Notes under the pieces: generated by a model
What the model saw: the letters and a program-made list of their open reading frames with translations, nothing else
Told to the model about the DNA's origin: nothing
Databases searched by the model: none
Program-made: the position numbers and the translations under genes
Shown here: positions 4,327-15,946 of the stretch, one piece after another
Layout: each line of letters opens with the position of its first letter
Numbering within the stretch: the stretch's first letter is position 1
IMG/VR virus record: IMGVR_UViG_2645728048_000025
Length of the DNA: 15,946 nucleotides
Strand: one strand, 5' to 3'
Source of the DNA: a virus
Taxonomy: Duplodnaviria > Heunggongvirae > Uroviricota > Caudoviricetes

Positions 4327-5763
4327 TCAGAATCCTCCTTTCTTCTTGGACTGCGGTTCCTCGCGTTCACGGCGGCGCATTTCAGCAGACTGTTGGTCTG
4401 TGTCATAAATAGCGCCATTTGCCTGTATGCAATACACCGTGCCGGTATTGCCATGACGATTGAGGCGAAGGATTAGTTCGGTTTCACCAGGAGGAACGCT
4501 GTCATCAAAAGCACCTTCACGATGGATCCCCACCCAATAATCGCAATCCTGTTCAATCTGCCCTGTATCTCGTGAGTCACTTGGTAATGGGCGTTTATTG
4601 GTTCGGCTTTCCAGTGCGCGGTTAAGCTGTGTCAGAAGCACAACAACGCAATCAAGCTCTTTGGCAAGGTTCTTCAGTCCTTTGGTGATCATGCCGTAAG
4701 CAAGGTCGTTGCGATCGGCCTTCTCAGCAGTCATTAGTGTCAGGTAATCGACCAGAATCATGCCAACACATCCTTTTTCTCGCTTGATTCGACGGCTTTC
4801 GCTGACGATTTGAGCCAGAGATAATCCCGGCGTGTCGTCGATGTAAAGCAGGTCGATTTCACTCAAGCGATTGGCTGTTTCGATCGCCCTGTTGAAGTCA
4901 CCATCGTAATCACCCTGATAGCCGTCATCAGCGTCATTTGTCGCCGGAAGGTAAAAAATATTCGGGTTAACACCTGACTTCTGTCCCACCAGTTTTTCCA
5001 GTATCTGGTCACCTGGCATTTCAAGGCTGAACATCAGAGCGGGCTTTTTCTCATGCACTGCACAGTTGATTGCCATCTGGCTGTATAGCGTCGTTTTCCC
5101 CATCTTAGGGCGAGCGCCAATGACAAACAAAGAGCCTTTCACCAGACCTTTCGGTGACAGCATCCTGTCCAGCGATGGGATCCCTGTGCTCATTCCCCGT
5201 TGTTCGCCTGATGGGTCAAATCGCTTCTCAAGGTCGCTAACCCAGTCTTCCATGACCTCACCAAATGAGCGAAGGCCGCGACGCGATCCGGTTTTTGCAT
5301 GGTCTGTCAGTTGCGTGAAAATCGCCTGAATAGCTTCGTACTTCTGCGTTGCAGTCATTCCATTGCGGGAATAGAGCAATTCCGTCGCTTCAGTCATGCG
5401 GTTGATGGCGTAGCGTTCCATTGCGGTTTCACGAACCTGCATTGCATAGGCAACGATGTTTGCTGCGCTTGGCGTGTTCTTTGCGATCTCAGCGATATAA
5501 GCAAAACCGCCAACAGACGCCGTTAACGATTTACGCTCCAGTTCATCGAAAAGCGTCAGGCCATCTACTGGCTTTTGCTCCCGGTGCATTCTGGTTATTT
5601 CTTCGAAAAGGATTTTGTGTGGTCGGCCGTAAAATGAATCAGGCTTCAGCATCGCCAGAACTTTCTGGACGCGCTCACTGCTGTCATCATCCAGAAGCAA
5701 TCCACCAATCACCGCCTGCTCTGCCTCGATGCTATGGGGCGGCGCATAAAAATTATCGGTCAT
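4327..5763 (-). CDS. Replicative DNA helicase, DnaB family (P22 gene 12-like)
   Basis: Walker A GARPKMGKTT and DnaB-like layout over about 478 aa. ATG at 5763 (MTDNFYAPPH) preceded by GAGGGTGAA is preferred over the track's GTG start at 5778; it overlaps the O-like stop by 11 nt. Confidence 0.88.
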   Translation of the reverse strand: MTDNFYAPPHSIEAEQAVIGGLLLDDDSSERVQKVLAMLKPDSFYGRPHKILFEEITRMHREQKPVDGLTLFDELERKSLTASVGGFAYIAEIAKNTPSAANIVAYAMQVRETAMERYAINRMTEATELLYSRNGMTATQKYEAIQAIFTQLTDHAKTGSRRGLRSFGEVMEDWVSDLEKRFDPSGEQRGMSTGIPSLDRMLSPKGLVKGSLFVIGARPKMGKTTLYSQMAINCAVHEKKPALMFSLEMPGDQILEKLVGQKSGVNPNIFYLPATNDADDGYQGDYDGDFNRAIETANRLSEIDLLYIDDTPGLSLAQIVSESRRIKREKGCVGMILVDYLTLMTAEKADRNDLAYGMITKGLKNLAKELDCVVVLLTQLNRALESRTNKRPLPSDSRDTGQIEQDCDYWVGIHREGAFDDSVPPGETELILRLNRHGNTGTVYCIQANGAIYDTDQQSAEMRRREREEPQSKKKGGF

Positions 5764-6514
5764 CGTGTTCACCCTCACGAACTTTCAGGTAGGTATTATC
5801 GTTAAGCAGGAAATCAAATCCCTTTTTGTGCCAGACGGTTCCGCGATGATGGTTTGGGCGCTCTTCGAACATCCATCGGCAATTTTCGCCTACGTAGCTC
5901 AAATAATTTCTCCAGTCCTGCATCGTGAACCCATGCCCGTCAAGCTGGCGGGTTATCACTCCGGCTTTGCGCCAGAACGTTCGGATCTGGTTTTTACGCT
6001 TGTCATTCAGTGCGCGGATTCTTGGCGCTTCAGGAAGGATTTCGTGGTAAGCATCGACAACATCCTGACAGCTAACGGAAGGTTTTTTCTTGTCAGACTT
6101 TTTGTCTGCTGTGGCACTCTCTAATACGTCAGTATTAGAGATATTATTTATATTATTGTTTATGGACAACCGTTGGACAACCGTTGGACAATTTTTTGCC
6201 TGAAAATCGTCATATTTAACGATTGTAAACAGGCTAAATTTCTTCCCCATCGAGCAAATATTAAGCATCCCTTTCGACTCAAAAGTCCGTAATAAGCTCC
6301 GAACTTTGTTGTCGGGGATGAATGTTTCTCTGACCAGCGACGGGCGTCCAGTTATCATCTGACCGCGATCAACAGTTATCGGACCGATATCCGTATTGAC
6401 GACAGTAGATTCGTGATTAGCCTTGAGGATTAAGTGAAGCCAAAGATGTACTGCCTGAGAGTCCTTATAGAGCCTGCTGTCCATAAACTGGCGGTGTATA
6501 GAGACATACCCCAT
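5753..6514 (-). CDS. Replication initiator, lambda O-like / P22 gene 18-like
   Basis: Start chosen at MGYVSIHRQFMDSRLYKDSQAVHLWLHLILKA (ATG 6514 preceded by CAGGAGG), a typical replication-protein-O N-terminal domain. An Asn/Ile-rich linker (SINNNINNISN) is encoded by the AT-rich ori segment. It sits upstream of the helicase. Confidence 0.8.
   Translation of the reverse strand: MGYVSIHRQFMDSRLYKDSQAVHLWLHLILKANHESTVVNTDIGPITVDRGQMITGRPSLVRETFIPDNKVRSLLRTFESKGMLNICSMGKKFSLFTIVKYDDFQAKNCPTVVQRLSINNNINNISNTDVLESATADKKSDKKKPSVSCQDVVDAYHEILPEAPRIRALNDKRKNQIRTFWRKAGVITRQLDGHGFTMQDWRNYLSYVGENCRWMFEERPNHHRGTVWHKKGFDFLLNDNTYLKVREGEHDDR
6118..6195. repeat. Candidate origin of replication inside the O-like gene: palindrome, AT-rich tract, 11-bp iterons
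   Basis: 24-bp perfect palindrome TCTCTAATAC-gtca-GTATTAGAGA (6118-6141); AT-rich tract 6141-6162; tandem TGGACAACCGT at 6163-6173 and 6174-6184 plus a partial third copy TGGACAATTTT (6185-6195). Confidence 0.55.
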
Positions 6515-6563
6515 ACTGGATGCCTCCTGATGTTGTACAGGGTTATGCCTGTAATCAGCTAAC

Positions 6564-6725
6564 TTAACGACGCCCATGTTTCACTCCTGCTTTGGCTAGT
6601 CTGTAAACACCAACAAGGCGCTCTGCGAACGCCCTGTTATTTGCTGCGGCTACCACTAATCCCTCAGGTGAATCAGGGTGTCGAATCTCTTCTTTTTCCT
6701 GGTATTTCTTACGACGTTTTGTCAT
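6564..6725 (-). CDS. Small basic ORF (53 aa) between cII and the O-like gene; uncertain
   Basis: MTKRRKKYQEKEEIRHPDSPEGLVVAAANNRAFAERLVGVYRLAKAGVKHGRR with AGGAG 5 nt upstream of the ATG. Its start codon coincides with a CATAAT -10-like hexamer on the opposite strand, so the interval may be regulatory instead. Confidence 0.3.
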   Translation of the reverse strand: MTKRRKKYQEKEEIRHPDSPEGLVVAAANNRAFAERLVGVYRLAKAGVKHGRR

Positions 6726-7447: not shown

Positions 7448-8164
7448 ATGGAAAATAAAAAATCACTGACGACAGAACAGCTCGAAGACGCTAAGCGGCT
7501 TAAGGCTTTGTATGAGTCAAAAAAGAAAGAATTGGGAATAACCCAATACTCAATCGCTGATGAACTGGGTATCACCCAAGGAGCGGTAGGGCATTATCTT
7601 AATGGCAGAAACGCGCTAAACGTTGAGGTTGCATCTGGTTTTGCACGATTGTTGCAAGTCTCAATTGCTGATTTTAGCCAGTCAATTGCTGCCAAGGTTG
7701 CAGAACAGGCAGAAAGCCTTAAGAGCGATGCCAACGTAAGGTATGCAGGGGAATACAGAGCAGGAAAGAGGTATCCGGTGTTAAGCAGTATCCAGGCTGG
7801 CTCGTGGTGTGAAGCATGCGAACCATACACCATTAAAGACATAGATGTTTGGCTTGAGTCTGACGCGCATATTCAAGGTAATGCGTTCTGGCTTAAAGTG
7901 GAAGGTGATTCAATGACGGCACCGGTTGGGTTAAGCATTCCAGAGGGAACATTCGTTCTTTTCGATACCGGAAGGGAGGCGATCAACGGCAGCTTGGTCA
8001 TAGCAAAACTTTCTGACTCTAACGAAGCAACATTCAAGAAGCTGATAATCGACGGCGGAAATAAATACCTCAAGGGACTTAATCCTGCATGGCCTCTCGT
8101 GCCAATCAATGGAAACTGCAAGATTATAGGCGTTGCAATTGAGACAAAACTAAGGCTGGTTTGA
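7448..8164 (+). CDS. cI: CI repressor (HTH N-terminal domain plus S24 LexA-like autopeptidase domain)
   Basis: HTH region (ITQYSIADELGITQGAVGHYLNG), putative Ala-Gly cleavage site in YPVLSSIQAGSW, catalytic Ser in EGDSM and Lys in FKKL; collinear with lambda CI. Confidence 0.9.
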   Translation: MENKKSLTTEQLEDAKRLKALYESKKKELGITQYSIADELGITQGAVGHYLNGRNALNVEVASGFARLLQVSIADFSQSIAAKVAEQAESLKSDANVRYAGEYRAGKRYPVLSSIQAGSWCEACEPYTIKDIDVWLESDAHIQGNAFWLKVEGDSMTAPVGLSIPEGTFVLFDTGREAINGSLVIAKLSDSNEATFKKLIIDGGNKYLKGLNPAWPLVPINGNCKIIGVAIETKLRLV

Positions 8165-8181
8165 TCACGCAAGGGGCGATT

Positions 8182-8550
8182 ATGGTTGGAACCGCTATAG
8201 CAAGCTTTTTGGGGATGTTGGCAATCTCAACAATTTACGGCTTAGCGCATGCTTTTATTGCGAAATCTCTATCAGAAAAAATAAGCCAGGCTTGGGCGCA
8301 TAGATCTGCTCGTTTCATGATTCTAGTGGTCATAGCAATACAAGGGATATCTGCATTTATCCTCTATGGATCAAGCTTATACCTGTTGTATCAAGGCGCG
8401 ACATTTACGCCTTACACCAGTGATTACGGAACTCTATACGATGGTAGTGAAGACATCTCTATGGCTTGGATCGTCTTTGGTTTATCTATGGCCGTGTCTG
8501 TTGTAGCAGACATCATTAAGGTAATTCTCGTCTTAACCTTCGCTGACTAA
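8182..8550 (+). CDS. Small integral membrane protein (about 122 aa) immediately downstream of cI; function unknown
   Basis: ATG at 8182 preceded by AAGGGG, 18 nt after the cI stop. Three long hydrophobic segments. Visibly more AT-rich than cI. Occupies the rexAB/sieB-type slot. Confidence 0.6.
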   Translation: MVGTAIASFLGMLAISTIYGLAHAFIAKSLSEKISQAWAHRSARFMILVVIAIQGISAFILYGSSLYLLYQGATFTPYTSDYGTLYDGSEDISMAWIVFGLSMAVSVVADIIKVILVLTFAD

Positions 8551-8636
8551 CCCATAATCCCGGCAGCAATAGCTATCGGGATCCACTTCACATATCCCGC
8601 ATAAAAAGCACTGAACAAGCAGACACCGAAAAAATA

Positions 8637-8723
8637 AATATCCTTTGTATTCATTCGCTTATCATTATTTCACCAAAAATAAATACCTTGTGTATTTACA
8701 CAATAAAATACCTACAGTATTCT
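8637..8723. promoter_or_regulatory. OL operators and PL promoter candidate
   Basis: Operator matches AAATACcttgtGTATTT (8681-8697, perfect dyad), AATACctacaGTATT (8707-8721), and a weaker AATATccttTGTATT (8637-8651). PL candidate -35 TTTACA (8695-8700), 17-nt spacer, -10 TATTCT (8718-8723), overlapped by operators exactly as at PR. Confidence 0.55.
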
Positions 8724-8769
8724 TTAGCCATCAGCAGAACGCTTGAAGCCAAACGGAACAGATTGGCAG

Positions 8770-8810
8770 GCTCTTTAACATTGATGGGATTGTCCCGCCG
8801 AAATGCGGGA
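8770..8810 (+). promoter_or_regulatory. nutL: boxA GCTCTTTAACA plus boxB hairpin
   Basis: boxA 8770-8780; boxB TCCCGC-cgaaat-GCGGGA 8793-8810; about 40 nt downstream of the PL candidate and upstream of N; identical to nutR. Confidence 0.7.
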
Positions 8811-8917
8811 ACCAAAGAGTAGTTGGCTTTGGGGTGACGTGAAGTGCAGCTGCACGACGGCAACCGGAAGATAAGCACCCGGCGCGTCACCGCCAAAGTC
8901 AATCATCGGAGGTCAAC

Positions 8918-9190
8918 ATGACAGTAGTCATTACATATCTGGCTGACGATAACGCCAGAAATCGCCGCAGAGCACGCAGACAGGCTCAACGTGAACAGGC
9001 AATGCAAGAGCAGCAACTGGCGCGAAAAATTGCGCTAAAGCTCTCTGGTTGCGTCAGAGCAGATAAAGCAGCATCACTCGGAAGCCTTCGCTGCAAGAAG
9101 GCAGATGAATGCAGTGGAAGTATTTGCCTGCCAAACGTAGCTCTTTACGCGGCAGGCTACCGTAACTCCAAACAACTGACAGCAAGATGA
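8918..9190 (+). CDS. N: N-like transcription antiterminator (arginine-rich motif)
   Basis: 90-aa ORF with N-terminal ARM (DDNARNRRRARRQAQREQAM); GGAGG 5 nt upstream of the ATG; first gene downstream of PL/nutL. Confidence 0.72.
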   Translation: MTVVITYLADDNARNRRRARRQAQREQAMQEQQLARKIALKLSGCVRADKAASLGSLRCKKADECSGSICLPNVALYAAGYRNSKQLTAR

Positions 9191-9250
9191 CTTGTGTTGG
9201 TCGCCAGAAAATGAAATTAGGCAGCAAACCACTTATTTGAGGACTGATAC

Positions 9251-9493
9251 ATGAGAGTAAAAACTATGGGCGCAAGCCCATTAAGTGGTCGTATTTTTCA
9301 AGGAACATTAAACACTGAAAAAGGAATGTGGGTGGGAAAGAAAGAAGATGTAACCGAACAGGCAGTTAAGGCAGTAGCTGAACACATGATGATAAAAGAC
9401 CAGAAATATGCATACGAAACGAAGGATGGCAAATGGCTGATAATAAGTCATCAAATAGTTGATAAATTACCAGAAGAGTTTATTGCTGATTAA
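9251..9493 (+). CDS. Hypothetical protein (80 aa) directly after N
   Basis: ORF with GAGGA upstream; no recognisable family; followed by a hairpin and an intrinsic terminator. Confidence 0.45.
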   Translation: MRVKTMGASPLSGRIFQGTLNTEKGMWVGKKEDVTEQAVKAVAEHMMIKDQKYAYETKDGKWLIISHQIVDKLPEEFIAD

Positions 9494-9621
9494 AATTATT
9501 TTGGCATAAACAACAGAATAAACACTGCACTGTGTATTCATTCCAACGAGTGAATACACTGAGCAATGTCGCTCGTAACTAAACAGGAGCCGACTTGTTC
9601 TGATTATTGGAAATCTTCTTT

Positions 9622-9645
9622 GCCCTCCAGTGCGAGGGCTTTTTT
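9622..9645 (+). terminator. Rho-independent terminator in the PL operon (tL-like)
   Basis: Stem GCCCTC / GAGGGC (9622-9627 / 9634-9639) with a 6-nt loop, followed by TTTTTT (9640-9645). Confidence 0.6.
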
Positions 9646-9711
9646 ATATGCATACCAATAACGCTTCACTTGAGGCGTTTTCGTTATGCAATCAAACAGA
9701 AGGAGCATCCT

Positions 9712-9882
9712 ATGCAACAGTTCGCTATTGCAGGGGCGGCATCGGTTCGCCCTTTCAACCCGATTTTATCGGTGCAGCATTCACGAAAAAATATTTTAAC
9801 CGGAGCAGACTTTAAACAACCAAGAATGAAAAGTTTGCTCGAAAAGCTTTGGGATATTTTGAAACAACAAGGCCGTCCATGA
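9712..9882 (+). CDS. cIII: CIII-like protein (56 aa; putative FtsH-inhibitor that stabilises CII)
   Basis: MQQFAIAGAASV ... SLLEKLWDILKQQGRP, resembling lambda CIII as recalled (MQYAIAG ... RLIDILNQPG); AAGGAG 7 nt upstream of the ATG. Confidence 0.55.
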   Translation: MQQFAIAGAASVRPFNPILSVQHSRKNILTGADFKQPRMKSLLEKLWDILKQQGRP

Positions 9883-10037
9883 GTTTTACAGATAACTGGT
9901 CAGACGAAGAATTCATTCGTCAGATGAAAGAATTAATCGGTAACGAAGGAGATATTCATGTCACTTGCAACCACAGTGAAGGAGAGCAAGTTACAGAGAC
10001 GCATGTACACGCAGAAAGCTCTCTGGTATCGCCATAA
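9879..10037 (+). CDS. Small acidic protein (52 aa) translationally coupled to cIII; Kil-position ORF
   Basis: ATGA overlap with the cIII stop; MSFTDNWSDEEFIRQMKELIGNEGDIHVTCNHSEGEQ...; no recognisable family. Confidence 0.4.
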   Translation: MSFTDNWSDEEFIRQMKELIGNEGDIHVTCNHSEGEQVTETHVHAESSLVSP

Positions 10038-11364: not shown

Positions 11365-11661
11365 ATGCCAGCGCCTCTGTATGGTGCGGACGACGCGCGC
11401 CGCTGTTCCGGCAATTCCGTATCGGAGGTGCTGGATAAATTCAGAAAAAACTACGACCTGATAATGTCGCTACCGCAGGAAACGAAAGAGGAAAAGGAAT
11501 TTCGCCACTGTATATGGCTTGCAGAGAAAGAAGAACGCGAGCGAATTTACCAGACATCAATCCGACCATTCCGCAAAGCCACATATACCCACTTCCCTGA
11601 ATATATCGACCCGCGCCTGCGTAATTACCGCTCACGCTATGGCGCTATCAGTAATGACTGA
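11365..11661 (+). CDS. Hypothetical protein (98 aa)
   Basis: ORF with AGGAG upstream; no recognisable family. Confidence 0.5.
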
Positions 11662-11671
11662 GGAATTTACC

Positions 11672-11839
11672 ATGAGAGGACTTGCATACAATCCCGGAAT
11701 TCTTCCGGCAGAAATGATTATTCGCCAACGCGTAAAGCCAATGCCATCGATAGAGGAATTGCTTAAGAGAAATTCTTTTCCATCAGTGAATCAAAACAAA
11801 TATCTGAATGCGATGTGGCGTAAAGGAGGCAAGCAGTGA
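11672..11839 (+). CDS. Hypothetical small protein (55 aa)
   Basis: Internal ATG of the track ORF 11519..11839, preceded by GAGGAA; begins 11 nt after the previous stop. Confidence 0.4.
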
Positions 11840-12090
11840 GTAATTCCGCACGACTACAGCTTGGTTTTTCACCGCTATCAAAAACTATCATGCTGGCAAA
11901 AATGCGCGATGTTGAAGGTGGACGTATGCGCGTTGGCAATGATCCAGGTCGTGATGTTACCAATGAGGCTGCTCAATTGGTGTGGCGACTGGTCATGGCT
12001 GAAGGTGGTGAGATCGCGTGGGAGCTGGATGATGGTTCTCGCATGGTGTTGAAGGCAGAAAAGCAGGAGGCAACCAGTGAGCAAGATTGA
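11836..12090 (+). CDS. Hypothetical protein (84 aa, GTG start)
   Basis: GTG preceded by AAGGAGG, overlapping the previous stop (GTGA). Confidence 0.45.
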
Positions 12091-12721
12091 TTATCAAAAG
12101 CTTCGTGAAATCGCTGAAAAAACAAAAATTGCCGGTGAAGCACCTGTAATGCCTTGCGATCAGCGAATTAATGCGCTTAACGATTTTATGAAGCACTTTT
12201 CGCCAGATATCGCGCTGGCATTGTTGGATGAACGGGAAAGAAACCAGCAATACATCAAAAGCCGCGATCAGGAGAACGAGGATATTGCGCTTACGGTTGG
12301 GAAGCTGCGCGTTGAGCTGGAAGGCAAAGACAGCAAAATAGCCAATCTTACCGCCGAACGCGATGCTCTTCGTGAAGGTGAGATGGGCGACGCTAGGCAT
12401 AGCAACACACGGGCCGCAGCTGATATCTACTTCCAACTGGTCGAGGAGTGCGAAATTCCTGCTGGCGGTTCTCTGGTCGAGTACGTTGACGATATGCGCG
12501 AGAAGCTGGAAGCCGCAGAGAAGCGCATTGCAGAGTTAGAAAGTGGTTCTCAGGCACAAAAGTTAGTTGAAGCAATCATTGTTGCGATAGAAAACGAACA
12601 GGAAAGGCTTTTTGATGAAGATTACCTAATGGATTCGAAAGAATGCATTGACGTAATTCGTGAAGAAGTAAAGCGATGGAATGATTCCCGCGCCGCTGGC
12701 ATTCGCATCAAAGGAGAGTGA
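12077..12721 (+). CDS. Ea22-like coiled-coil protein (214 aa, GTG start)
   Basis: N-terminus [17 protein letters not shown] resembles the conserved start of Ea22-like prophage proteins as recalled; central heptad-rich segment. AGCAGGAGG RBS. Confidence 0.55.
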   Translation: MSKIDYQKLREIAEKTKIAGEAPVMPCDQRINALNDFMKHFSPDIALALLDERERNQQYIKSRDQENEDIALTVGKLRVELEGKDSKIANLTAERDALREGEMGDARHSNTRAAADIYFQLVEECEIPAGGSLVEYVDDMREKLEAAEKRIAELESGSQAQKLVEAIIVAIENEQERLFDEDYLMDSKECIDVIREEVKRWNDSRAAGIRIKGE

Positions 12722-13561: not shown

Positions 13562-13657
13562 AAGCGAAGCTTATACATATCTTTTACATCAGCAATCTAT
13601 TGTTAATCTCCAATCAATGTTACGTTGTCATCTCACTCATGCTTTGGAGGTAGTGAT

Positions 13658-13837
13658 ATGTCTTGTCCAAAATGCGGTTCTGGAAATATTGCAAAAGAAA
13701 AAACAATGCGTGGATGGTCTGGAGATTATGTGTGCTGCGATTGCGGATACAACGACTCTAAAGACGCATTTGGAGAGCGTGGTAAAAACGAGTTTGTTAA
13801 AATTAATAAAGAAAGCGAAGGCAACGAAAAAAGCTAA
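13658..13837 (+). CDS. Small zinc-ribbon protein (59 aa)
   Basis: MSCPKCGSGNIAKEK ... YVCCDCGYND with paired CxxC motifs; GGAGG upstream; Lys/Glu-rich tail. Confidence 0.5.
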   Translation: MSCPKCGSGNIAKEKTMRGWSGDYVCCDCGYNDSKDAFGERGKNEFVKINKESEGNEKS

Positions 13838-13968: not shown

Positions 13969-14169
13969 ATGCAACACGAACTACAACCTGATTCACTGGT
14001 TGATTTGAAATTCATCATGGCCGATACTGGCTTCGGTAAAACCTTCATCTATGACCGGATTAAGTCCGGCGACCTGCCTAAAGCCAAAGTTATCCACGGA
14101 CGAGCAAGATGGTTATATCGTGACCATTGTGAATTCAAAAATAAGCTCTTAAGCCGCGCCAATGGGTAA
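13969..14169 (+). CDS. AlpA/Xis-family small DNA-binding protein (excisionase-like, 66 aa), with no adjacent integrase
   Basis: LVDLKFIMADTGFGKTFIYDRIKSGDLPKAKVIHGRARWLYRD fits the AlpA-type winged-helix pattern; GGAGA upstream of the ATG. Confidence 0.55.
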   Translation: MQHELQPDSLVDLKFIMADTGFGKTFIYDRIKSGDLPKAKVIHGRARWLYRDHCEFKNKLLSRANG

Positions 14170-14698: not shown

Positions 14699-15946
14699 CT
14701 ATATTGCTGAAGGTACAGGCGTTTCCATAACTATTTGCTCGCGTTTTTTACTCAAGAAGAAAATGCCAAATAGCAACATCAGGCAGACAATACCCGAAAT
14801 TGCGAAGAAAACTGTCTGGTAGCCTGCGTGGTCAAAGAGTATCCCAGTCGGCGTTGAAAGCAGCACAATCCCAAGCGAACTGGCAATTTGAAAACCAATC
14901 AGAAAGATCGTCGACGACAGGCGCTTATCAAAGTTTGCCACGCTGTATTTGAAGACGGATATGACACAAAGTGGAACCTCAATGGCATGTAACAACTTCA
15001 CTAATGAAATAATCCAGGGGTTAACGAACAGCGCGCAGGAAAGGATACGCAACGCCATAATCACAACTCCGATAAGTAATGCATTTTTTGGCTCTACCCG
15101 ATTCACAAAGAAAGGAATAATCGCCATGCACAGCGCTTCGAGTACCACCTGGAATGAGTTGAGATAACCATACAGGCGCGTTCCTACATCGTGTGATTCG
15201 AATAAACCTGCATAAAAGACAGGAAAAAGTTGTTGATCAAAAATGTTATAGAAAGACCACGTCCCCACAATAAATATGACGAAAACCCAGAAGTTTCGAT
15301 CCTTGAAAACTGCGATAAAATCCTCTTTTTTTACCCCTCCCGCATCTGCCGCTACGCACTGGTGATCCTTATCTTTAAAACGCATGTTGATCATCATAAA
15401 TACAGCGCCAAATAGCGAGACCAACCAGAAGTTGATATGGGGACTGATACTAAAAAATATGCCGGCAAAGAACGCGCCAATAGCATAGCCAAAAGATCCC
15501 CAGGCGCGCGCTGTTCCATATTCGAAATGAAAATTTCGCGCCATTTTTTCGGTGAAGCTATCAAGCAAACCGCATCCCGCCAGATACCCCAAGCCAAAAA
15601 ATAGCGCCCCCAGAATTAGACCTACAGAAAAATTGCTTTGCAGTAACGGTTCATAAACGTAAATCATAAACGGTCCGGTCAAGACCAGGATGAAACTCAT
15701 ACACCAGATGAGCGGTTTCTTCAGACCGAGTTTATCCTGAACGATGCCGTAGAACATCATAAATAGAATGCTGGTAAACTGGTTGACCGAATAAAGTGTA
15801 CCTAATTCCGTCCCTGTCAACCCTAGATGTCCTTTCAGCCAAATAGCGTATAACGACCACCACAGCGACCAGGAAATAAAAAAGAGAAATGAGTAACTGG
15901 ATGCAAAACGATAGTACGCATTTCTGAATGGAATATTCAGTGCCAT
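14699..15946 (-). CDS. cscB: LacY-family (MFS) oligosaccharide:H+ symporter, sucrose permease CscB-like (415 aa, complete)
   Basis: N-terminus MALNIPFRNAYYRFASSYSFLFFISWSLWWSLYAIWL and overall layout match LacY-family permeases, and to my recollection E. coli CscB specifically. The start codon is at the last base of the window. Confidence 0.8.
   Translation of the reverse strand: MALNIPFRNAYYRFASSYSFLFFISWSLWWSLYAIWLKGHLGLTGTELGTLYSVNQFTSILFMMFYGIVQDKLGLKKPLIWCMSFILVLTGPFMIYVYEPLLQSNFSVGLILGALFFGLGYLAGCGLLDSFTEKMARNFHFEYGTARAWGSFGYAIGAFFAGIFFSISPHINFWLVSLFGAVFMMINMRFKDKDHQCVAADAGGVKKEDFIAVFKDRNFWVFVIFIVGTWSFYNIFDQQLFPVFYAGLFESHDVGTRLYGYLNSFQVVLEALCMAIIPFFVNRVEPKNALLIGVVIMALRILSCALFVNPWIISLVKLLHAIEVPLCVISVFKYSVANFDKRLSSTIFLIGFQIASSLGIVLLSTPTGILFDHAGYQTVFFAISGIVCLMLLFGIFFLSKKREQIVMETPVPSAI

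Follow-up and report, generated by a model that had tools for sequence, protein, structure and literature searches.

The window analysed here, the whole stretch of 15,946 nucleotides of a Caudoviricetes record (IMGVR_UViG_2645728048_000025), contains an early region in which the promoter PL and the nutL site are followed by the antiterminator gene N, an ORF of 80 amino acids (ORF80), a stem-loop, a homologue of the lambda small RNA LPR1/PreS that ends in the terminator tL2a, a second terminator-like hairpin (tL2b), and a cIII-like gene (Table 1). We read this order with considerable confidence as the beginning of the PL (early leftward) operon in a prophage of the HK620/lambda type, with an ORF80 cassette next to a conserved hairpin. 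All elements are of known kinds, namely a catalogued DUF member and a presumable orthologue of lambda PreS/tL2a, and they do not make up a new type of system. A preliminary description, made from the sequence alone, had placed an 80-aa ORF directly behind N in the PL operon. The ORF list and the position of N bear this out; that observation as a whole was confirmed, and the first interpretation attached to it was supported in part. The PL region aligns with HK620 without gaps at 96.8% identity, with the annotated pL of that phage at the matching position, and PL/OL spans approximately 8659–8730. The N gene shares 94–97% DNA identity with the N genes of HK620 and HK140.

Table 1. Coordinates of the genes and the DNA and RNA elements discussed in the text.
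Feature	Position	Strand	Basis or remark
cI	7448–8164	+	
Predicted membrane protein, 129 aa, phrog_6534, hkaS-like	8161–8550	+	starts inside the cI stop codon
PL promoter, TTTACA-17-TATTCT, overlapping OL1/OL2	8695–8730	+	promoter scan; HK620 pL annotation
nutL, boxA-like GCTCTTTAAC and boxB hairpin	8769–8810	+	mapped from HK620 by gapless alignment
Antiterminator N, HK620/phage 21 type, 90 aa	8918–9190	+	PF25694, E 3.7e-15; phrog_271, E 1.5e-33
ORF80, DUF7446 small protein, 80 aa, ATG start	9251–9493	+	Pfam, PHROG, selection, AlphaFold2
Hairpin, 12-bp stem and 4-nt loop	9532–9559	+	fold −15.4 kcal/mol; conserved flank of the PreS module
LPR1/PreS homologue (Hfq-dependent sRNA in lambda)	~9561–9647	+	primer position; lambda alignment
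Intrinsic terminator tL2a, 3′ stem and U-tail of PreS	9622–9645	+	terminator scan; HK620 annotation; preprint
Second terminator-like hairpin, tL2B in the HK620 annotation	9660–9686	+	terminator scan; fold −9.9 kcal/mol
cIII-like gene, 56 aa	9712–9882	+	phrog_550 'CIII', E 1e-22; HK140, 98% DNA identity
P22 Abc2-type anti-RecBCD protein	11365–11661	+	PF11043, E 4e-62
Divergent DUF7446 paralogue, 84 aa, GTG start	11836–12090	+	PF24233, E 1.3e-18; same operon
Ead/Ea22-like gene overlapping the 3′ end of the DUF7446 paralogue	12077–12721	+	

Around this region, the predicted membrane protein gene next to cI holds the position of lambda rexA/rexB and is presumably co-expressed with cI in the lysogen. 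The Abc2-type gene lies downstream of genes for a Rad52-like annealing protein and SSB. At the far end of the PL operon, a 70-aa zinc-ribbon ORF (13625–13837, + strand) reaches 22.5 bits against the Lar restriction-alleviation family, below its cut-off of 28.6, and is a possible anti-restriction gene. The last phage gene encodes a TorI-type excisionase (13969–14169, + strand); approximately 530 bp devoid of tRNA or integrase genes follow, and then a LacY-family oligosaccharide permease gene (14699–15946, − strand). We considered a defective prophage on account of the missing integrase and rejected it, given that a TorI-type excisionase stands last and that the junction between excisionase and permease is common in E. 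coli, where it was found in 298 complete genomes.

The comparison with related phages reveals a mosaic with joints near 9190 and 9499, which delimit the ORF80 cassette (approximately 9191–9498). Positions 8601–9190 are 95–97% identical to HK620 and HK140, and 9245–9517 are 95.6% identical to the Salmonella phage SE21. On the right, 9499–9928 match HK140 at 98% identity, and 9499–9650 match the spacer between ral and ea10 of lambda (34073–33920) at 96% identity (96.1% over 154 nt, the hairpin included). The lambda homology restarts 14 nt past the ral stop codon, in agreement with the preliminary description, which had located the ORF in the ral slot of lambda. The ORF80 cassette therefore replaces what lambda and HK140 carry at this place, the sieB-(orf28)-ral segment. 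ORF80 thereby resembles lambda ral in its slot between N and the hairpin-PreS unit, in its strand, and in its small size. It differs from Ral in lacking sequence or profile similarity and in coexisting with ral in P22-like phages.

The slot is variable. The genes directly upstream of the hairpin-PreS unit in 100 viral-contig loci belong to no fewer than 14 unrelated clusters of proteins, among them Ral (32 loci), a 156-aa protein (19), a 207-aa protein (10), and DUF7446 (4). The "ral position" thus exists, but as a general slot for accessory genes. Among 5,426 complete E. coli genomes, 45 carry the ORF80 cassette and 2,335 the flanking region. In SE21, a P22-like Salmonella phage, the ORF80 homologue follows directly after ral, and in other prophages extra genes part ORF80 from N or from PreS, so that the tight N-ORF80-PreS arrangement is not obligatory. 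In E. coli FDAARGOS_944 (locus L215, 2870–3701), an identical ORF80 follows another N allele at a distance of 10 nt, which indicates that the cassette moved between N backgrounds. The prophage in this strain is broken by IS4 and IS600, and no more than 100 nt separate ORF80 from cIII.

As for ORF80 itself, a Shine-Dalgarno sequence (GAGGA, 9239–9243) can be read 7 nt before the ATG codon. The protein scores 100.2 bits against Pfam DUF7446 (PF24233; cut-off 24.1), with residues 4–72 aligned to positions 2–70 of the 70-position profile, and matches phrog_1578 over its full length in a PHROG profile search (E 9.9e-41). The lack of recognisable similarity noted in the preliminary description thus holds with respect to Ral (hhalign probability 2.7%) but not with respect to these two families. 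RefSeq names the identical proteins "DUF7446 family protein", and the exact protein occurs on 225 public contigs under that label or as "hypothetical". A word-indexed search with ORF80 retrieved 61 homologues with identities down to 40%, and an exhaustive profile search yielded 351 clusters at the 50% identity level, nearly all of them stand-alone proteins of 70–95 residues. Across 31 homologues with 40–96% identity, 16 residues are invariant, mostly within the first 45 positions (M6, S9, G13, I15, G18, T19, T22, W27, K31, D33, V34, T35, A38, V42, E44, and H45). The pairwise dN/dS ratios among close relatives are mostly between 0.1 and 0.5. By these sequence comparisons, ORF80 is a real gene under purifying selection and a typical member of DUF7446, a catalogued family with no assigned function.

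Attempts to link the family to a known function gave little. Literature searches with DUF7446, PF24233, phrog_1578, and WP_001264184 returned no paper on the family, an NCBIfam search of ORF80 nothing meaningful, and sequence searches of the PDB with the single sequence and with a profile no match below an E-value of 0.1. The sole match in PADLOC, to DndE (E 0.0078, 14.9 bits), is weak and was set aside as probably spurious. No motif matching ORF80 was present in the supplements of the 200-gene accessory-gene screen by Silas et al., and the fusion partners in longer relatives (DUF551, a zinc ribbon, and a VIT fragment) gave no functional lead.

We modeled the ORF80 structure with AlphaFold2 and searched for related folds, as the preliminary description had suggested; the outcome was a confident model (pLDDT 90.9) but no fold match in the PDB. 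The model contains strands at residues 2–8, 15–21, and 26–33, a helix at 35–49, and two further strands at 53–56 and 62–65. In Foldseek searches with the model, the best PDB hit had an E-value of 0.15 and TM-scores did not exceed 0.41, and the matches in BFVD were uncharacterised family members only. ORF80 is thus predicted to form a small βββαββ domain without a solved structural relative.

DUF7446 homologues occur both in virulent Ackermannviridae and in the lambdoid prophages of three genera (Escherichia, Salmonella, and Yersinia). A copy with 95% identity to ORF80 is present in nine P22-like Salmonella phages. Approximately 270 Ackermannviridae (Det7, Maynard, and others) have a copy of about 55% identity amid small early-type ORFs. 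In Yersinia lambdoid prophages the gene lies in the PL operon soon after N, and one of these prophages has two copies. A distant branch in phages of about 55 kb has genes for HD_4, NADAR, YAcAr, and a methylase as neighbours. In three such loci (L007–L009, 5001–5803), a DUF7446 gene of 40% identity overlaps the 5′ end of a gene with an HD_4 (RelA/SpoT-type HD) domain, with NADAR, YAcAr, and a faint DNA-methylase match nearby. The window itself contains a second, divergent DUF7446 gene with 31% identity to ORF80, and the presence of two DUF7446 paralogues within one operon is modestly new. The exact 84-aa protein encoded by this second gene is present on 1,000 or more public contigs. The overlapping pair of a DUF7446 gene followed by an Ead/Ea22-like gene is also present in L088 and L091, both unrelated phages.

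Downstream of ORF80 lies the segment homologous to the lambda spacer. In lambda, LPR1, renamed PreS, was mapped between ral and ea10 as an Hfq-dependent sRNA of approximately 88 nt, which is processed to approximately 68 nt, has the terminator tL2a as its 3′ end, and is confined to the lytic cycle (Silverman et al., bioRxiv 10.1101/2024.10.31.621285). It increases the translation of dnaN, represses alaS, and supports phage DNA replication (10.1101/2024.10.31.621285). In the published cloning primer P810, LPR1 begins at GAGCAATGTCGCTCGTAACT (10.1101/2024.10.31.621285), which corresponds to 9561–9580 of the window. From there to 9647, a single substitution in a loop and an indel of 2 nt set the window apart from lambda PreS (~88 nt), within the limits of at least 92% identity and at most three gaps by which the preprint defines conservation of LPR1 (10.1101/2024.10.31.621285). 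The seed mutations M1 (CTG) and M2 (GAA) abolish the regulation of both dnaN and alaS (10.1101/2024.10.31.621285). The seed (approximately 9596–9615) is identical in the window and in lambda, and TTGTTCTGATTATTGGAAATC at 9595–9615 corresponds to the wild type in primers P838, P839, P888, and P889, with the M1 and M2 sites intact. The 3′ end is of the Hfq type, with a GC-rich stem and poly-U. We therefore regard the window RNA as the probable orthologue of lambda LPR1/PreS, for which lytic-cycle expression, Hfq binding, and regulation of dnaN were demonstrated in lambda. The two share the seed, the GC stem with its U-tail, and the location in the PL operon upstream of cIII. They differ in their surroundings: in lambda, ral is the upstream gene instead of ORF80, sieB lies between N and PreS, and ea10 is inserted after tL2a, between the two terminator hairpins. 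None of the Rfam 15 covariance models detected an RNA over 8600–10000 at the gathering threshold or at an E-value of 1 or below, and the PreS segment was likewise without a match. A preprint on the Pas sRNA proved unrelated.

Diverged PreS-like RNAs are present in SE21 (L002, 3723–3830) and in two further P22-like loci (L033 and L056), with 84% identity over 55 nt. An insertion of approximately 13 nt precedes their terminator stem, which is a different one, and they have an upstream hairpin of their own. Their seed is changed at several positions, and they may regulate different targets.

The terminator scan found the letters GCCCTC-CAGTGC-GAGGGC followed by TTTTTT at tL2a, a stem of 6 bp with 5 GC pairs and a U6 tail (−11.4 kcal/mol) that scores as an intrinsic terminator. 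The canonical terminator of the preliminary description is thus real. A site at 9660–9679 with a T-run just upstream of cIII, not listed in the preliminary description, also scores as an intrinsic terminator, more weakly; the element at 9660–9686 is conserved in lambda, where it follows ea10, and the HK620 annotation names the homologous hairpins tL2A and tL2B. The assignment of stem and terminator to ORF80 itself did not hold, as both lie within the segment resembling the lambda ral-ea10 spacer, and the terminator is tL2a of PreS. What looked like the gene's own terminator is the end of a regulatory sRNA, and the logic of the annotation is corrected accordingly.

On the + strand, the scan detected no terminator-like site from PL to 9617. 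The sieB-like segment of HK620, in which the terminator tL1 is annotated, is missing from the window, so that transcription begun at PL is expected to extend to tL2a even when N is absent. An immediate-early, N-independent RNA of approximately 0.92 kb would then comprise the N and ORF80 coding regions with PreS at its end, and on this sequence-based prediction N, ORF80, and PreS should share one N-independent transcript. ORF80 had been described as the only cargo beyond N made without antitermination. No terminator is predicted before 9622, in keeping with that claim, but PreS lies on the same predicted transcript, so ORF80 is not the sole cargo before the first terminator. Neither inspection by eye nor the promoter scan found an acceptable −10/−35 pair upstream of 9561, which favours processing of PreS from the PL transcript over initiation at a promoter of its own. 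That PreS and its cargo are predicted to be made without N in this phage is modestly new.

The hairpin between ORF80 and PreS had been noted as a perfect 9-bp stem. The arms GTGTATTCA and TGAATACAC are indeed present at 9532–9540 and 9551–9559, but the stem folds further, into 12 pairs including one G.U, and closes on the tetraloop CAAC. Its fold has a z-score of −6.2, and none of 200 shuffled sequences folded equally well. The window contains two perfect 9-bp hairpins, with 0.9 expected per shuffled window. One such hairpin is expected about once by chance, and the significance of this one therefore rests on its conservation. It is identical in the aligned sequences of lambda, HK620, and HK140, all of which lack ORF80, and is thus part of the conserved right flank, outside the ORF80 cassette. 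A single base separates it from the 5′ end of PreS. Only one more perfect hairpin of 9 bp or longer occurs in the window, a 10-bp palindrome at 6118–6141 (TCTCTAATAC-GTCA-GTATTAGAGA); this palindrome lies inside a replication-initiator-like gene (5753–6577, − strand) and may be an origin element. An exact 11-nt copy of the 5′ arm (TGTATTCATTC) occurs on the + strand at 8646–8656, ahead of PL and close to where the cI operon ends, and is absent from the matching region of lambda; arm copies with at most one mismatch number three, with 0.4 expected, a count reached in 2 of 200 shuffles.

We located 153 loci with the PreS core, of which 145 have this hairpin, 7 have a second type, one is cut by the contig end, and none is without a hairpin. 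Every evaluable copy of PreS (152/152) is hence preceded by a hairpin of 11–12 bp. The second type reads UAUAGCAGAUU-UACG-AGUCUGCUAUG (−12.4 kcal/mol), and a third type precedes the diverged PreS of the P22-like phages (−12.6 kcal/mol for the trimmed hairpin). All three have 11–12 pairs and a loop of 4–5 nt and leave exactly 1 nt before the first G of GAGCAAU. Types 2 and 3 share their flanks and differ in 5 of 11 pairs, counted by script, with both sides changed in a compensatory manner. Three different sequences with the same geometry and compensatory changes indicate that the hairpin is conserved as a structure, and we consider this good evidence that it is under selection. A hairpin of constant geometry and replaceable sequence before every PreS copy examined is modestly new; the preprint mentions neither this hairpin nor how the 5′ end of PreS is formed (10.1101/2024.10.31.621285).

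Several readings of the hairpin could be set aside. It is followed by UGAGCAAUG instead of a U-run, does not score as an intrinsic terminator, and is therefore not a terminator; nor is it one for the opposite strand, as no U-run lies past it on either strand. It shares the words GTATT/AATAC with OL1 and OL2, which suggested a repressor operator, but it is identical in lambda, a phage of different immunity, and its half-sites stand in reverse order relative to OL1/OL2. We propose instead that a cut at the foot of the hairpin, one base after it, would release PreS from the PL transcript. The hairpin would remain as a 3′ stem-loop on the N-ORF80 mRNA and may shield it against 3′ exonucleases, and it might also keep the variable cargo sequence out of the PreS fold. 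Intercistronic hairpins that stabilise mRNA are known, such as the malE-malF REP hairpin, and CpxQ is an sRNA derived from a 3′-UTR by RNase E processing. As in these cases, a stable stem-loop without a U-tract ends a coding region and the 5′ end of an sRNA follows, and PreS shares the operon terminator as CpxQ-type sRNAs do. Unlike the malE-malF element, the PreS hairpin is not a REP sequence, and both processing and stabilisation are only proposed here.

Lambdoid phages are well known for conserved boundary sequences at mosaic joints, and the hairpin might accordingly be "linker" DNA at such a joint, kept through recombination between phages and devoid of an RNA function. The near-invariance of the main hairpin over 145 loci with no covariation within its own type would fit this explanation, as would the chance frequency of about one perfect 9-bp hairpin per window. 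It accounts poorly for the two other hairpins, which have the same spot, stem, loop, and 1-nt spacer and differ from each other by five compensatory changes, and for the lack of any hairpin-less copy among the evaluable PreS loci. We consider such a linker unlikely. With regard to ORF80, a spurious ORF or decaying remnant without gene function is brought to mind by its shortness, its unassigned function, and its rarity among E. coli genomes. Full-length membership in a Pfam family of 351 diverged clusters, invariant residues at 40–96% identity, dN/dS below 1, a good Shine-Dalgarno sequence, and a confident predicted fold all speak against it, and this explanation, to which we assign a negligible probability, is already effectively refuted.

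What ORF80 does can be approached by inference only. ORF80 could be a functional analogue of Ral, made immediately early to shield unmodified incoming DNA from type I restriction-modification, as it occupies the slot held by ral in lambda and HK140, as its synthesis is predicted to precede the action of N, and as an early position is typical for anti-restriction genes such as T7 ocr. The profile comparisons argue otherwise, with the hhalign probability for Ral given above and no Ral match in Pfam, NCBIfam, or PHROGs. Moreover, a 95%-identical gene lies directly 3′ of ral in the same operon in SE21 and its relatives, so that the two are not alternatives and the ral position loses its value as a hint of a ral substitute. 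With at least 14 unrelated genes in the slot, position carries little information on function; the family also extends to virulent Ackermannviridae, and a weak Lar-like zinc-ribbon ORF is present elsewhere in the operon. A Ral-like role thus seems decidedly improbable. Somewhat less so, yet still unlikely, is a role of DUF7446 as partner or modulator of Ead/Ea22-type coiled-coil proteins, acting in the lysis-lysogeny decision or host physiology and not in defence, with ORF80 as a solo immediate-early copy. The overlap of the window's paralogue with an Ead/Ea22-like gene, the same overlapping pair in the unrelated 41–46 kb phages L088 and L091, and the fusion of one relative to DUF551, another "ea"-region domain, are in line with such a partnership. 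ORF80 and most of its relatives, however, have no Ea22-like neighbour; the pairing is confined to a few loci, and the function of Ea22 is itself poorly defined.

We tentatively favour ORF80 as an early lytic effector that binds a protein of the host or of a competing element, in counter-defence or host takeover, and not as a methylase activator of the Ral type; this is a possibility and far from an established role. The counter-defence idea comes from the neighbouring genes and the position and from nothing else: the operon is repressed by CI, the gene is predicted to be immediate-early, the slot is shared with ral, abc2 lies in the same operon, and distant relatives have NADAR, YAcAr, methylase, and HD_4 genes beside them. 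The family is common to temperate and virulent phages. By residue count ORF80 is near-neutral, neither strongly acidic nor strongly basic, and a DNA mimic is therefore unlikely. The E44-H45 pair is lost in the paralogue of the window, which argues against a role as an enzyme. DUF7446 may be an immediate-early effector of new fold directed against a host defence or function, and the hairpin 1 nt before PreS may be a required element for processing or insulation; we regard these further-reaching readings as rather unlikely.

As the loss of the sieB segment should make PreS and the cargo gene independent of N, this phage offers a naturally occurring case in which to ask when PreS is required, and the invariable hairpin makes the origin of the PreS 5′ end directly testable. 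If the proposed role is correct, the hairpin would permit any swap of cargo without disturbing the biogenesis of PreS and would also stabilise the cargo mRNA. DUF7446 is widespread, has two paralogues here and no solved relative, and is therefore a reasonable candidate for accessory-gene screens. If the effector reading is true, DUF7446 would serve both temperate lambdoid phages and virulent Ackermannviridae.
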